Source: a virus (lineage: Duplodnaviria; Caudoviricetes). From it: a stretch of 56,825 bases of DNA. Below the pieces are notes generated by a model. That model had not been told where the DNA came from, searched no databases, and was given only the letters and a program-made list of their open reading frames with translations. Shown piece by piece: positions 26 to 56,346 of this stretch. Each line of letters opens with the position of its first letter. The first letter of the stretch is position 1. Location: positions 1 through 56,825 of the IMG/VR virus record IMGVR_UViG_3300017910_000654; one strand, given 5' to 3'. The position numbers were made by a program, and so were the translations under genes.

Positions 26-41
26 GTGTCTTCAAAGACAC
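26..41. repeat. 16-bp palindrome copy 1 (GTGTCTTCAAAGACAC)
   Basis: Matches GTGTCYTYRARGACAC; ends 2 nt before hammerhead 1. Confidence 0.95.
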
Positions 42-43
42 CT

Positions 44-94
44 TCCGTCTATGGATGTGTGTCCATACTGATGAGACCGAAAGGTCGAAACGGA
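44..94 (+). ncRNA. Type III hammerhead ribozyme 1
   Basis: Stem III TCCGT/ACGGA, GTC cleavage triplet (C49), stem I TATGGA/TCCATA with loop TGTGTG, core CTGATGA, stem II GACC-GAAA-GGTC, GAAA. Confidence 0.95.
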
Positions 95-120
95 TTTTTT
101 AAAATTTAAATTTAGAAACG

Positions 121-312
121 ATGACTTTTATTCAATCTATTTTTCGATACGTTCTTGGAGCGTGTATTGTAATGGCTTTGTACTGCGCGTACAACATCCA
201 TCGAGTTGATGTGCCATGTTCAAACGAGGACATGGTGACTTACGGCTTCTTCCAATTGCTATTCTCAGTTGGAGCGATGGCTTCCTATCTAATCGTTAAA
301 CACGAGGACTAA
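121..312 (+). CDS. Small membrane protein (2 hydrophobic segments)
   Basis: ORF track; hydrophobic stretches YVLGACIVMALYCAY and YGFFQLLFSVGAMASYLIV; AT-rich leader. Confidence 0.75.
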   Translation: MTFIQSIFRYVLGACIVMALYCAYNIHRVDVPCSNEDMVTYGFFQLLFSVGAMASYLIVKHED

Positions 313-461
313 TGGAGGCATTGCAGACGTACACAATATACGTGAATGGAGTTCGAGTGGGCTACGAGTTAGCCCATTCGAAGTACCATGCGATTGACAA
401 GGCTTACCAATCTTTTAACTGCGAGATTGATAGGCAAAATTTTAAGGCAGTCAAAAATTAA
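312..461 (+). CDS. Hypothetical protein, 49 aa (MEALQTYTIY...)
   Basis: Hand-translated; TAATG overlap with upstream stop; fills the gap. Confidence 0.65.
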   Translation: MEALQTYTIYVNGVRVGYELAHSKYHAIDKAYQSFNCEIDRQNFKAVKN

Positions 462-467
462 ATTATC

Positions 468-689
468 ATGAATAACATATCAATTTTAGAGAAAGCAATA
501 CTAACACTAGAGAACACCATCGTAGTGTTGGAACACCAACAAACTGAGTTAATAGATAGCTATGATGGGTGCCTTTTCGAGTACTATAGCGAGGACATCA
601 AGCCCGTCTTTGTTATAGAGAATCTCATTATCAATGCGCGTAAATCAATTGAACGTGCGAGAGCAGACCTTGCTCAATTAGAACAATAA
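468..689 (+). CDS. Hypothetical protein
   Basis: ORF track; AT-rich leader. Confidence 0.7.
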   Translation: MNNISILEKAILTLENTIVVLEHQQTELIDSYDGCLFEYYSEDIKPVFVIENLIINARKSIERARADLAQLEQ

Positions 690-698
690 AATTATTCT

Positions 699-746
699 TT
701 AACCGATGGTGGTGTCCTTGAGGACACCATCATCACAAACATCAAA
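699..746 (+). repeat. 48-bp intergenic repeat containing palindrome copy 2 (712-727) in an extended hairpin
   Basis: Identical to 1022-1069; GATGGTGGTGTCC-TTGA-GGACACCATCATC. Confidence 0.95.
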
Positions 747-751
747 TTAAA

Positions 752-783
752 TTTGGATAAGTCTAAAATTAGTCTTATCTTAG
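752..783 (+). promoter_or_regulatory. Bacteroidota-type promoter (-33 TTTG, -7 TATCTTAG)
   Basis: 20-nt spacer; near-duplicate of 1314-1345. Confidence 0.75.
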
Positions 784-805
784 TCTAAACAATTAAACAT
801 TTATC

Positions 806-1012
806 ATGGGGTACAGAACAACATTTTATTACGAGACCTACGATGGCGTAAAACATCATTTCCTCACGCAACATTGCTACAGACCATCGGCAACAAAAGC
901 ATGGAGAATGCTTAAGAAAATGCTCAGCGAGAAGAAAGACAATATCTTTTGTATAGGTTATGATATAGGCGATGAGCCAATTGTTAAACAATTAAATAAG
1001 GCTACACGATAG
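806..1012 (+). CDS. Hypothetical early protein
   Basis: ORF track; follows a promoter. Confidence 0.7.
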   Translation: MGYRTTFYYETYDGVKHHFLTQHCYRPSATKAWRMLKKMLSEKKDNIFCIGYDIGDEPIVKQLNKATR

Positions 1013-1021
1013 TCGATTAAA

Positions 1022-1069
1022 TTAACCGATGGTGGTGTCCTTGAGGACACCATCATCACAAACATCAAA
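1022..1069 (+). repeat. 48-bp intergenic repeat containing palindrome copy 3 (1035-1050)
   Basis: Identical to 699-746. Confidence 0.95.
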
Positions 1070-1072
1070 GAA

Positions 1073-1291
1073 ATGAAACGACACATTATCATTCACAATG
1101 ACCGACATCACTACAAGGTGGTTGATGTTGACGGCAACAATCATCTCATTCCTTTTTGGGGAGACAACGGATACCATCAATGGTCGCTAAACTACAAGCC
1201 AACAGATGACGAGGTCAAGTTGGGATTCATGCAACGTGATGAAGTCTGCTTCAAAAAATTCTTGAAGGCAGTACATGGCATAAGTCATTGA
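1073..1291 (+). CDS. Hypothetical early protein
   Basis: ORF track. Confidence 0.7.
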   Translation: MKRHIIIHNDRHHYKVVDVDGNNHLIPFWGDNGYHQWSLNYKPTDDEVKLGFMQRDEVCFKKFLKAVHGISH

Positions 1292-54388: not shown

Positions 54389-54618
54389 ATTCTGTATTTA
54401 ATATATAATGGTTTCTTTCGTCTCGGGTCATACGCCACAACGATAGTATCATCTGAACGTGTAAGCGTGTATATTATTTCGTCGCCCTCTAAACTAATCA
54501 TAATTCTGTATCCATCCTCAACAGCTTTCGTCTCAAGCTGTTCTGAATCCAACTCAATATATGGGTGCTGTGCACATAGCACATTGCTAATTAATAAAAA
54601 AGCTATTACCCTTATCAT
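54385..54618 (-). CDS. Small secreted protein
   Basis: Signal peptide ending VLCA-Q; ATGA overlap. Confidence 0.6.
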   Translation of the reverse strand: MIRVIAFLLISNVLCAQHPYIELDSEQLETKAVEDGYRIMISLEGDEIIYTLTRSDDTIVVAYDPRRKKPLYIKYRI

Positions 54619-54620
54619 AG

Positions 54621-54694
54621 TACTCCCATCAGGGGTCGAACCTGAAACCTACTGCTTAGAAGGCAGTTGCTCTATCCAATTGAGCTATGGGAGC
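54621..54694 (-). tRNA. tRNA-Arg (anticodon TCT), CCA not encoded
   Basis: GCTCCCA acceptor; D arm; ACTGC-CTTCTAA-GCAGT; GGTTCGAC T loop. Confidence 0.95.
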
Positions 54695-54713
54695 AGAATG
54701 CAATAATAGAAAT

Positions 54714-54914
54714 AATATGTCAATATGTCAACTTTTGGTTTCCCTATACTACTACTACTTACCTCCTATTATCGTATTAACTCTTATATACGAGGCTTTA
54801 AACTTAACATAGTTAACATATTTAAAATAAGTAATTGATAATCAAATAGTTAGAAAAAAAAAGAGAGCATAAAGTCAGCATAAAGAGAGCATAAAGAGAA
54901 CATAGTCAGCATAA
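54714..54914. other. Origin-like element B (homologous to 7075-7240)
   Basis: TTATATACGAGG, (C/G)TTAACATA x2, TTGATAATCAA, ~5 x GWSARCATA(AA) at 54863-54914. Confidence 0.6.
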
Positions 54915-54954
54915 TTGGAGAGTGGTTGATACAAAAAATTCTTTTTGTATAACG

Positions 54955-54984
54955 AAAAAAAGGGGAAGCCTAAGCCTCCCCTTC
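54955..54984 (-). terminator. Intrinsic terminator
   Basis: GGGGAGGC-TTAG-GCTTCCCC followed by T7 on the - strand. Confidence 0.8.
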
Positions 54985-55012
54985 CAATCAAACATCAAAT
55001 ACTATAATCAAA

Positions 55013-55216
55013 TTACAGTTTCTTAAACAGGTCAATGTTTGCATTAGCTAATTCATTGCCCTCTGCAATCATTCTGACCTTCTTGGCTCTCTTGATATCC
55101 TTCTTCATCTGAGCCAACTTAGTTATTCCCATCTCAGGTGATGGTGCCATATTAATTAATCGACCATCCTTTAATGTATACCCCATCTCTTCGGGTGTTA
55201 TTCTAAAATCGTGCAT
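55013..55216 (-). CDS. Hypothetical protein, first gene of the late arm
   Basis: ORF track. Confidence 0.7.
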   Translation of the reverse strand: MHDFRITPEEMGYTLKDGRLINMAPSPEMGITKLAQMKKDIKRAKKVRMIAEGNELANANIDLFKKL

Positions 55217-55381
55217 GCTTTCCTTTTGTGTAAATATAAACTTTTTTTAGATACCCGTAGTTTTTGGGTTCATAGCGAAAATTTTGCGTCACGCTCGGTT
55301 CGGGAAACGGCATTTTGCGATGGGTGGGGGGTCGTGTTTGTCGCTTTTCGTGGCTAACTTTTTAGGCTTTTGTTGTGGCAT

Positions 55382-55557
55382 CCTGTAAAGCCTTGCTACG
55401 TATAGCTTACAGCGCCTTGCCCTGTCTACCTGTATTGTACCTGTGTCCTTGAAGACACAAAGAAAGAAAGGTCTACCCCTAGCTAATCGGCATTACGCCA
55501 AAACAAAGCGCAAAGAAAAGAAAGCGCGCAAAGCCTTACGCAGTAACGTTTTACAGG
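55382..55557. repeat. 27-bp imperfect inverted repeat (55382-55408 / 55531-55557) enclosing palindrome copy 17 (55443-55458)
   Basis: 21/27 complementary; lies in the divergent non-coding region. Confidence 0.7.
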
Positions 55558-55597
55558 CGGATGTGAAATAAAATTTTTTTGTTCGGAATATTATACT

Positions 55598-55605
55598 TAG
55601 TTTTG
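55598..55605 (+). promoter_or_regulatory. -7 element TAGTTTTG of the first early gene
   Basis: TAnnTTTG ~50 nt before ATG 55657. Confidence 0.5.
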
Positions 55606-55656
55606 AACTATCGTTGAACGAACAACGTGTATTTTTTAATCATTAAATATTCTAAC

Positions 55657-56307
55657 ATGAATCATTTACTAACTATCGAAAAGGACTTCTTAATGTCCAA
55701 TGCAGTAACTAGCGAAATTAACTTCGCTTCAATCTTCACAGCTCAAGCTAGCGCTGACAATGCTCAGAAAGCCAAGTTTGACAAATCCATCAAGCTAGCC
55801 GAAATGGTAGCGAATGCATCAGCATGGTTTGACAAGGCTGAAACCAAGGCACAGCTAGAAGCTAACGGCATCGAATGGGATAACAAAGAGACGTTCTTCC
55901 AACGTGTCTTCGGATGGCAGAAAAGCTTTGCCTACAAGATGGTCAAAGCGGGTAAGCTAAAGATTGAGCAAGGCGAAGTAGTTACGGCGTTCAAACGTCA
56001 TTGTACTGCCTTAGAGAATGCAGGCGAAGGTTCCAACCGCTCAATCGCAGGATTGCTCAAATTCGCCAAAGGCGATACCGAGACAGCTAGCCGTCCGAAA
56101 GCCTTAGCAACATTCAGCATTGCCAAGGATGGCGTCAATGGCGAGAAAGGATTTTCAATCCGTCTCAATCTTGATGGCTCAATCGACATGAGCGGAGAGT
56201 TAATCGACAGCAACATCGAGTACAATATCAACAAGCTATTCGGTAAGCTACAAAGGCTGAATGAATATCAGCAAAGAATTAATGAATCTCAGCAATCTAA
56301 CAGCTAA
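55657..56307 (+). CDS. Hypothetical first early protein (possible HTH)
   Basis: Start reassigned to ATG 55657; FFQRVFGWQKSFAYKMVKA resembles an HTH. Confidence 0.7.
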   Translation: MNHLLTIEKDFLMSNAVTSEINFASIFTAQASADNAQKAKFDKSIKLAEMVANASAWFDKAETKAQLEANGIEWDNKETFFQRVFGWQKSFAYKMVKAGKLKIEQGEVVTAFKRHCTALENAGEGSNRSIAGLLKFAKGDTETASRPKALATFSIAKDGVNGEKGFSIRLNLDGSIDMSGELIDSNIEYNINKLFGKLQRLNEYQQRINESQQSNS

Positions 56308-56322
56308 ACCTATTTTTTAATC

Positions 56323-56346
56323 AGTGGTGTCCTCAAGGACACCACT
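56323..56346 (+). repeat. Extended hairpin with palindrome copy 18 (56327-56342)
   Basis: AGTG-GTGTCCTCAAGGACAC-CACT. Confidence 0.95.

Follow-up and report, generated by a model that had tools for sequence, protein, structure and literature searches.

The palindrome and its surroundings

The IMG/VR virus record IMGVR_UViG_3300017910_000654, a stretch of 56,825 bases rated 94% complete that we analysed at its full length and call the window, comes from a tailed phage in which a 16-base-pair (bp) palindrome, GTGTCYTYRARGACAC, recurs from one end of the genome to the other. The early and replication genes of this phage run rightward, from 55.6 kb through the contig ends to 13.8 kb, and the late genes run leftward. 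Its terL (41716–43950) is 74.6% identical to that of the uncultured podovirus MW202828.1, 45% identical to that of the Flavobacterium elemo phages, and 31–39% identical to those of Cellulophaga and Tenacibaculum phages. The window proteins scanned include no RNA polymerase, sigma factor or integrase. We compared the window with four related genomes, referred to as G001 to G004, and with further relatives, referred to by L numbers where a single one must be told apart.

The palindrome has 16 exact matches in the window, compared with a mean of 0.00 in 100 dinucleotide-preserving shuffles. Allowing up to two mismatches adds only the copies at 9279 (GGATAC) and 26239 (ATGTC), for a total of 18 copies where 0.20 are expected. 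A sequence-only reading of the window, made before this analysis, had reported 18 copies at the same places, two of them with one mismatch, and the scan reproduces that count. The copies and the features that belong with them are the following, with lengths in nucleotides (nt), amino acids (aa) or bp and with open reading frames given as ORFs:

26–41, palindrome copy directly 5′ of hammerhead 1
42–96, plus strand, type III hammerhead-like ribozyme (hammerhead 1), predicted to cut after C49 (CUUCCGUC), with all core residues present
705–734, plus strand, hairpin of 13 bp (core 712–727) with TAACC and CACAAAC flanks; −23 kcal/mol, z −6.0
1028–1057, plus strand, hairpin of 13 bp (core 1035–1050), 22 nt ahead of the ATG at 1073
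1579–1608, plus strand, hairpin (core 1586–1601) with a compensatory stem change, GATGGCG/TGCCATC
2640–2669, plus strand, hairpin (core 2647–2662) in the 5′ leader of a GGACT-domain gene (ATG at 2686)
3765–3780, copy extended by 5 bp, adjoining hammerhead 2 on its 5′ side
3784–3834, plus strand, second hammerhead-like element (hammerhead 2), with a weak stem II, following copy 3765
5755–5770, in-gene copy, ORF 5413–5934, phase 0, read as VSSKT, centre CG
6670–6685, copy overlapping the stop codon of a PDDEXK-like gene (5936–6670)
9279–9294, one-mismatch copy in the primase gene, at a conserved CLQGY; probably a by-product
10769–10784, in-gene copy, SNF2-type helicase; at the same site in G001 and 13 codons off in G003 and G004
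13840–13882, terminator hairpin (core 13855–13870) between the convergent early and late blocks, with an A-run and a T-run; −27.5 kcal/mol
19320–19335, in-gene copy, 3105-aa ORF; a phase 0 copy in a variable acidic stretch, as also in G001, G003 and G004
26239–26254, one-mismatch copy, ORF 26051–26461; in relatives in the same neighbourhood at other exact places
36575–36604, minus strand, intrinsic terminator (core 36582–36597) after ORF 36616–38097, with two G·U pairs and a T-run; −26.2 kcal/mol
43726–43741, in-gene copy near the 5′ end of terL, on the same codons in four of four distant genomes
53038–53053, in-gene copy, groEL, on the same codons in four of four distant genomes
55443–55458, control-region copy (non-coding), some 120 bp ahead of the first early promoter
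55578–55605, plus strand, Bacteroidota-type promoter-like site (TTTG, 16 nt, TAGTTTTG) ahead of gene 55657–56307
55657–56307, plus strand, first early gene, whose 216-aa product, p216, is the candidate palindrome-binding protein according to homology and models
56327–56342, copy past the p216 gene, 19 nt after its stop codon and 22 nt before the ATG at 56365

The early plus-strand block (1–13870 and 55443–56342) holds 13 of the 18 copies, which bears out the early density that had been claimed, and most copies sit 15–23 nt before early-gene start codons within a directional composite element. In the late block there is one copy per 5–10 kb; about seven copy neighbourhoods are kept there, similar in four genomes and with local turnover, and the terminator copy at 36582 has orthologues at 21173 in G003, 52410 in G001 and 944 in G004. 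Seven copies lie in long ORFs (5755, 9279, 10769, 19320, 26239, 43726 and 53038) and all three phases are used, as the sequence-only reading had described through the translations VSSKT, CLQGY and VFEDT; both spacers it had noted on the sense strand, CTTGAG and CTCAAG, are likewise present. Two of its gene labels are not secured, 'annealing protein' for 5413–5934, which matches only PHROGs of unknown function, and 'GNAT' for 26051–26461, where the Pfam match falls below the cut-off.

Spread among related phages

A scan of related phage genomes returned 14–19 copies in each of the four relatives when up to one mismatch was allowed (16 in G001, 14 in G002, 19 in G003 and 17 in G004), and a reversed control pattern returned 0. 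G002 is close to the window (82–95% identity over the longest segments), whereas the genes that G001, G003 and G004 share with it are only 66–74% identical in nucleotides along their longest aligned segments. In IMG/VR, 69 stretches contain one exact form of the palindrome. The podovirus MW202828.1 has 0 copies of the window's word and carries instead 14 exact copies of another 16-bp palindrome, GTGTCGTTAACGACAC, all in the early block and none late, most of them 16–23 nt ahead of early start codons. In L224 the palindrome is GGGTATTYRAATACCC, with three exact copies and a fourth with one mismatch, 17–19 nt ahead of start codons. The palindrome is thus a trait of the clade, and the two diverged lineages MW202828.1 and L224 have 16-bp variants of their own. 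The general pattern GTGTC-N6-GACAC was found in none of elemo phage, phi38:1, phi19:3 and Gundel_1, and no comparable repeat was found in elemo phage.

The bacterial side was also scanned. Among 185,579 species genomes, at least 120 stretches carry the word; the 80 bacterial matches listed are all lone occurrences in scattered taxa except at one locus, which has two, and only one of them is in a flavobacterium. A host chromosomal repeat of the REP or MITE kind was rejected as the source of the motif, the bacterial matches being scattered and, by our estimate, at about chance level.

Conservation inside genes

The copies within terL and groEL allow selection on the nucleotides to be separated from selection on the protein. 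At the terL site, four distant genomes encode C-L/P-Q-R-H, and the corresponding residues are CYARS in MW202828.1 and ILFWD in elemo phage; at the groEL site the same four genomes encode CV(L/F)EDT, with CSYDDV and EFNNNP in MW202828.1 and elemo phage. In codon alignments of the four genomes, 15 of the 16 nucleotides of the terL copy are invariant, which ranks it first of 2313 windows, and in groEL 15 of 16 invariant positions are reached by 7 of 1665 windows. Overall, third codon positions are invariant at only 19% in terL and 14% in groEL. Because 15 of 16 bases are kept where so few third positions are, and because the encoded residues differ in phages that lack this motif, the alignments support the view that selection acts on the nucleic acid at these two sites. 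The sequence-only reading had claimed such selection for in-gene copies in general, and conservation beyond the constraint on the amino acids holds for terL and groEL; it does not hold for the primase. There, G001 encodes the same CLQGY through other codons and has no motif at that place, so the one-mismatch copy at 9279 is probably incidental and driven by the protein.

The remaining in-gene copies are less fixed in place. In G003 and G004 the helicase copy is displaced downstream of the site that G001 has in common with the window, and one orthologous site in the helicase has its centre flipped between CA and TG. The copy in the GNAT region occupies a different exact place in each genome, and those of the giant ORF lie in a stretch that does not align and where the alignment is unreliable.

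The palindrome as duplex DNA

Variation within the core was tabulated for five genomes with 84 copies in all. On the sense strand, the bases at positions 6 and 11 are CG in 29 copies, TA in 20, TG in 19, CA in 15 and AA in 1. The two half-sites thus vary almost independently of each other, and wobble pairs are in no excess over mismatches. The centre reads CA or TG in 79 copies, TA in 3 and CG in 2. CA and TG are the same step on duplex DNA, which points to a DNA-like reading of the core. The outer GTGTC and GACAC blocks, 11 bp apart from centre to centre, are invariant, and the inner YTYRAR tolerates only transitions, with the central pyrimidine–purine step always kept. Avoidance of restriction sites was considered for the CA/TG centre and rejected, in that TCGA and TTAA are not depleted (0.75–1.16 of expectation).

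One position of the palindrome is common to every genome in which it was looked for: a copy lies 120–280 nt ahead of the p216 start codon, before the promoter box, in 12 of 12 genomes (the copy of L227 is a one-mismatch form that was read by eye). The promoter-like site of the window at 55578–55605 was recognised from what we take to be the Bacteroidota promoter consensus, and relatives have TATATTTG-type promoter boxes before the p216 gene. Sites of the TTG..TAnnTTTG type accompany only a few of the other copies, for example at the GGACT gene in G001, G003 and G004, and most copies have no promoter of their own. Copies that lie between a promoter and its gene are downstream of the likely start site, which is the position where a roadblock would act.

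The surroundings of the control-region copy have features of their own. In the window, a 37-nt imperfect inverted repeat (55382–55418 and 55521–55557) and a G-rich stretch surround it. In G001, G003, G004, L215, L223, L227 and L228, C-rich direct repeats of the type CCCCGT(T/C)CC adjoin the control-region palindrome, about 100–330 nt upstream of the first early gene.

The palindrome as RNA

The sequence-only reading had missed that the palindrome is also an RNA hairpin, as judged by the G·U pairs that its extended stems use on the sense strand and by its physical coupling to hammerhead ribozymes. In the early intergenic copies, extra stem pairs beyond the core vary from copy to copy yet remain complementary (GATGGTG/CATCATC, GATGGCG/TGCCATC and GAGGGTG/CATCCTC). 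On the sense strand these extended stems contain 21 G·T against 4 A·C (binomial p 0.0009, over 20 elements with at least four extra Watson–Crick pairs, from copies that are partly related and with G002 left out). The mean number of extra pairs is 1.0 for in-gene copies versus 2.5 for other copies. Extended hairpins fold at −23 to −27.5 kcal/mol (z −5.2 to −6.0), whereas the bare in-gene copies fold weakly, at about −7 kcal/mol. A hairpin followed by a U-run, as in intrinsic terminators, is found at 36575–36604 on the minus strand and at 13840–13882, in agreement with the earlier claim that two copies are built into terminators; the early copies form stable stems with no T-run. A regression on the distance from hairpin base to ATG, made with a poor filter, gave a slope of −0.24 (p 0.72, n=26), and we base no claim of a constant distance on it. 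Parts of the early region were found in two metatranscriptome runs, as contigs only, which carry no information on RNA ends, strand or level.

Hammerhead 1 matches the Rfam model RF00008 with 44.1 bits (E 1.5e-7), below the gathering score of 48.5; it aligns over model positions 1–54 with an intact core (CUGANGA, GAAA and an NUH cleavage triplet), and its predicted fold is a three-way junction. Hammerheads of relatives score 40.5, 38.6 and 35.7 bits, also below the gathering score, and hammerhead 2 has no Rfam match. Type III hammerheads stand directly 3′ of the palindrome in the window (two), G002 (two), G001, G004, L215 (two), L216, L217 and L219. In L215 and L216 there is, in addition, a type I hammerhead in which the palindrome itself is stem III, and the L215 form folds likewise. 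The predicted cut lies 7–8 nt past the hairpin in both arrangements, which would leave the hairpin at the end of the upstream RNA. Other relatives have a hairpin of unrelated sequence ahead of the ribozyme, which argues that the ribozyme does not dictate the core sequence. Within window positions 3750–3842, the lowest-energy fold pairs the extended hairpin of copy 3765 with part of the 5′ strand of stem III; by such models, hammerhead 2 may be slow, regulated or inactive.

The first early protein as candidate binder

If the palindrome is read as duplex DNA, the protein most likely to read it is p216. Every one of the five motif-bearing genomes compared has a p216 homologue. Homologues were found in G001–G004 and MW202828.1 and none in elemo phage, which lacks such a repeat. 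Metagenome loci were scanned with two peptide patterns, one of them the putative recognition helix described below; of 80 loci with p216 patterns, 76 have GTGTC-type palindromes, and the other four are fragments of 1.3–3.6 kb. The word and p216 also occur together in 11 IMG/VR contigs.

A model of p216 (mean predicted local distance difference test, pLDDT, 81.4; predicted template modelling score, pTM, 0.60) has a helical N-terminal domain and a C-terminal part of three strands plus a helix. The protein is predicted to be a symmetric homodimer. Modelled as such from a nine-row alignment that we made, it reaches an interface score (ipSAE) of 0.79, against 0.01 for the best control; among proteins of solved structure, 20 of 30 pairs and 1 of 23 single chains score as high. 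The dimer runs agree in 94% or more of their contacts, with a pLDDT of 84 or higher.

All eight GTGTC-type members of alignment A4, down to 31% identity, retain one putative recognition helix, GWxKS[FY]x[YH]K (GY in L219). It differs where the palindrome differs. In L224 the helix reads GMEKRQYNR and the outer arms of the palindrome are changed (GGGTATTYRAATACCC), whereas its nearest relatives, L227 and L228, at 44–46% identity, have the GY form of the helix and the usual palindrome; in MW202828.1 the helix reads GLSKAQGHK and the inner part of the palindrome is changed (GTGTCGTTAACGACAC). The DnaA-domain-IV-like protein encoded at 4732–5019, by comparison, keeps its helix in both the L224 and the MW202828.1 lineage. 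The sequence-only reading had expected a dimeric protein that binds double-stranded DNA, which is plausible, and of the candidates it had named the first, 55657–56307, is favoured by co-occurrence, by the change in the helix and by the dimer model.

Searches for known relatives of p216 returned little. Among PDB sequences, a profile search returned nothing beyond ClpX rows at chance level, the Atlas holds only unnamed viral clusters, the p216 alignment has no shared Pfam family, and a relatives search with the MW202828.1 protein found none. A relation of the palindrome to DnaA boxes was rejected: TTATCCACA, at up to one mismatch, occurs 8 times where 17 are expected, and the DnaA-domain-IV-like helices are unchanged where the palindrome differs. 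The two genes concerned, 4732–5019 and 12070–12615, encode a DnaA C-terminal helix-turn-helix (Pfam Bac_DnaA_C, E 7e-9 and 5e-8).

A proposed explanation and its rivals

The simplest account of both the DNA-level and the RNA-level facts is that the copies are dispersed operators of p216 that have also been taken over as RNA hairpins, an explanation that we consider quite possible without yet calling it probable; binding by p216, and any effect of it on transcription, we infer. According to this proposal, the palindrome as duplex DNA would be the operator of the first early protein, which host RNA polymerase would make from a standard promoter. The protein would then occupy about 18 conserved places, namely the region upstream of its own promoter, most early-gene leaders, and sites every 5–10 kb in the late block, where the bound dimer would tune or block transcription in the manner of a roadblock, with shut-off and read-through both possible directions. 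Every transcribed copy would also fold as a small RNA hairpin, the intergenic ones with extended stems, and these hairpins would serve as 3′-end, protective and terminator hairpins. Some of them would act beside or inside hammerheads, which would cut the early transcript into gene-sized pieces.

Several observations weigh against this proposal. The helix-turn-helix-like segment of p216 (residues 77–104, with an invariant Gly86) is our own reading of a model, and residues 82–91 of that putative segment sit in the interface of the dimer model. Foldseek with the p216 model gave no match at E 0.001 or better, and the DNA-binding domains of ParB, Spo0J and KorB match only at the noise level of the tools (P1 ParB, 1zx4_A, Foldseek E 0.15; VIA Z 4.7, 4.5 and 4.0; Spo0J, 1vz0_A, Z 4.7, root-mean-square deviation 3.4, 92 aligned residues; KorB, 1r71_A, Z 4.5, deviation 4.2, 88 aligned). 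The covariation of helix and palindrome is that of two variant lineages, in one of which, MW202828.1, the helix differs though the outer GTGTC blocks are unchanged. The helix was itself a search pattern, so the 80 metagenome loci could not have shown new helix types. A roadblock set up by the first gene of an operon on its own downstream genes needs an argument about timing. Finally, the copies have a direction: TAAYC lies within 16 nt upstream in 17 of 34 copies versus 0 of 34 control windows, ACAAA lies downstream in 17 of 34 early copies versus 0 of 34 controls, and CA outnumbers TG by 53 to 11 on the sense strand among the early copies of nine relatives. Such directional flanks and the CA bias point to RNA alone, as does the coupling to ribozymes, which has a sense only there.

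A purely RNA-level element, acting as a 3′-end stabiliser, terminator tip, leader insulator or ribozyme helper with p216 unrelated to it, is a serious rival, if on balance an unlikely one. Its reader, should there be one, would be a factor that binds or cuts RNA. Besides the directional signals, it would explain the 21 to 4 preference for sense-strand G·U in stably folding stems, the T-run terminators at 13855 and 36582, and a hammerhead cut just past the hairpin in both arrangements; hammerheads also flank genes in prophages, where they are proposed to process long transcripts (PMC3088659). However, the in-gene copies, which fold so weakly, still keep all 16 bases, and C·A (15) and U·G (19) are found about equally often in the core when the sense strand is read. 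A reader of the RNA loop would have to accept UCAA and UUGA and reject UUAA and UCGA, a choice that amounts to a single step on duplex DNA. A copy is also conserved ahead of the first early promoter, the hammerheads of other relatives use unrelated hairpins, and no RNA-binding or RNase domain was found among the proteins scanned. The sequence-only reading had preferred a system of the parS or matS type over ordinary operators, in which the sites would organise, protect or admit the chromosome through their spacing and not through gene control. Chromosomal parS is likewise a 16-bp palindrome, the late block has its regular spacing with the same neighbourhoods and local turnover in four genomes, and ParB-family DNA-binding domains are among the weak structural matches. 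Yet 13 of the 18 copies fall within about 15 kb of early genes, most copies have fixed places 15–23 nt upstream of early start codons in a directional element, and all 14 copies of MW202828.1 are early. Moreover, a ParB/Srx domain is found in 0 of 9 members of the p216 alignment and no ParA-like ATPase was found among the proteins scanned, a scan outside which several small ORFs fall; we regard a parS-like role as improbable.

The copies could instead be recombination borders with no dedicated reader, cassette edges similar to the PeSLs on record (PMC2839356) and kept uniform by gene conversion. Contigs of relatives do differ by gains and losses of whole ORFs. Two re-orderings have joints at ORF borders beside elements, 1621>1750 and 2675>1750 (7 letters between), and a third joint, 1375>1567, removes ORF 1368–1565 and lies some 20 nt ahead of a copy. 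In contigs from DNA run X1, copy 13855 is joined to 55443 and copy 56327 to 1035 in the manner of inversions: the left flank of one copy runs into the reverse complement of the left flank of the other, the copies being identical once inverted. The flipped CA/TG centre in the helicase would fit the same process. These joints come from contigs, however, and are possibly library artefacts at a palindrome; gene conversion cannot hold 16 bases across genomes of about 70% identity or at orthologous terL and groEL codons, and the shuffling looks like a consequence and not like the selected function, so that we doubt this explanation strongly. Least probable of all, and in our view barely credible, is that the palindrome acts in single-stranded DNA, as a start signal for the primase-helicase (7243–9657) or as an N4-type promoter for a virion RNA polymerase. 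It would form the same hairpin on both strands, the primase has BT4734-like N, PriCT and DUF5906 domains, no DNA polymerase was found among the proteins scanned, and a giant virion-type ORF of 3105 aa is encoded. Against this, host-type promoter boxes lie upstream of copies, which places these copies within leaders; selection for G·T pairs is confined to one strand; and sites every 5–10 kb would be too sparse for lagging-strand priming. An N4-like or crAss-like virion polymerase with hairpin promoters is disfavoured by these host-type boxes and by a giant ORF that lacks a DFDxD motif and matches nothing in Pfam, PHROG or PDB sequences, though that ORF could still encode a very divergent enzyme. 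For phi14:2, the early transcripts are reported to share no motif (10.1101/2020.03.07.982082).

The operator-and-hairpin explanation that we prefer can be taken further, into a version that we think rather unlikely. Here one 16-base word would be selected both as an address label on DNA and as an RNA hairpin module, with copy-to-copy recombination reshuffling the early cassettes. A new dimeric immediate-early family would mark about 18 neighbourhoods, some of them within terL and groEL, where the label would set the protein sequence, and the recombination could invert segments, including the 41-kb late block.

Comparison with known systems

By analogy, the palindrome system would work like the stoperators of phages or the KorB/OB system and shares features with PeSLs, and it fails defining features of each. 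The cluster A mycobacteriophages (L5, TipsytheTRex) have some two dozen stoperators, with 26 sites and a 13-bp consensus given in the source, at which one phage protein halts elongation, and these sites are asymmetric and read by a monomer with two DNA-binding domains in a temperate phage (PMC9283540). As with stoperators, there are many copies of a short site, early and late, in gaps and in genes; unlike them, the window has a 16-bp palindrome with a predicted symmetric dimer and no integrase was seen, and its sites appear to double as RNA hairpins. RK2 carries 12 OB sites. On this replicon of about 60 kb, dimers of KorB bind dispersed palindromic OB operators and bring about global silencing (PMC11790492). 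The sites resemble those of ParB and KorB in being palindromes within 13–16 bp. KorB, on the other hand, has a ParB-type CTP-binding clamp domain and a role in partition, whereas none of the nine members of the p216 alignment matches a Pfam domain of that kind, and the structural likeness of p216 to KorB is at noise level (Z 4.0–4.5).

At the RNA level, the closest parallels are PeSL cassettes and hammerheads. In T4-type phages, PeSL stem-loops lie between small early ORFs and take part in modular shuffling, each pairing a strong early promoter with a terminator stem-loop, and they have no copies inside genes (PMC2839356). The palindrome resembles them where its stem-loop is able to end transcription, with T-runs at 13855 and 36582. 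It is unlike them in that most copies are promoterless, its 16-nt tip is invariant across distant genomes, and copies lie in conserved late genes. Phage and prophage hammerheads are likewise of types I and III, lie between genes and would cut transcripts to gene length (PMC3088659). Unlike those known in phages, the hammerheads described here are joined to a palindrome that recurs throughout the genome and that either stands directly 5′ of stem III or is stem III itself. Start-associated sequences of cluster K mycobacteriophages are reportedly 13-bp non-palindromic motifs, a few bases before the start codons of many genes. The likeness there is a short conserved motif upstream of many start codons in one phage, and the difference is a palindrome whose core ends 15–23 nt before the ATG. 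Four forms of the word were not found in a full-text literature search, and a keyword search gave nothing relevant. As far as our searches go, we found no description of the fusion to hammerheads or of in-gene copies in core genes.

Other features of the genome

Several features of the window stand apart from the palindrome. GATC occurs 0 times in the window, G001–G004 and MW202828.1, where about 150–250 are expected, and the absence of other 4-base palindromes is specific to lineages: GGCC is absent from the window and G002, and CATG from G003 and G004, in which CTAG is nearly absent. Two groups of iterons share an 11-bp period and the core (T/C)CAGCATAAA, four copies at 54860–54912 in the control region and three at 7197–7232, immediately ahead of the primase start codon; relatives have similar TCAGCA-type small palindromes in the leader of the first early gene. 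These iterons may be an origin or a site of the DnaA-domain-IV-like proteins. A tRNA-Arg gene (anticodon TCT; 54620–54694, minus strand) adjoins the control region, and relatives have a tRNA at the matching place.

Among the proteins, the 3105-aa ORF (13885–23202), itself without a database match, has as neighbours ORFs at 28500–33200 and 26483–27316 that match crAss-type muzzle protein families. A small nuclease resembling VRR-NUC and Holliday-junction resolvases (11534–11779) is unusually conserved, being 76–79% identical within the clade and 69% identical in MW202828.1. In the early region, relatives found in sequencing runs are missing entire small ORFs or carry them in a different order, a cassette-like shuffling.

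Significance

The palindrome would provide a testable regulatory code for widespread uncultured podophages of aquatic environments, the nearest cultured relatives of which infect Flavobacteriia. Its candidate reader belongs to an unannotated protein family with a precise predicted DNA site and two natural specificity variants. These p216 variants suit the study of how recognition evolves, and could give an orthogonal repressor–operator pair for Bacteroidota genetics. In the core genes terL and groEL, the encoded residues follow the motif, a case in which a signal in the nucleic acid appears to override the protein sequence. Because the same word is also part of hammerhead ribozymes, it would link a DNA operator to the processing of RNA.

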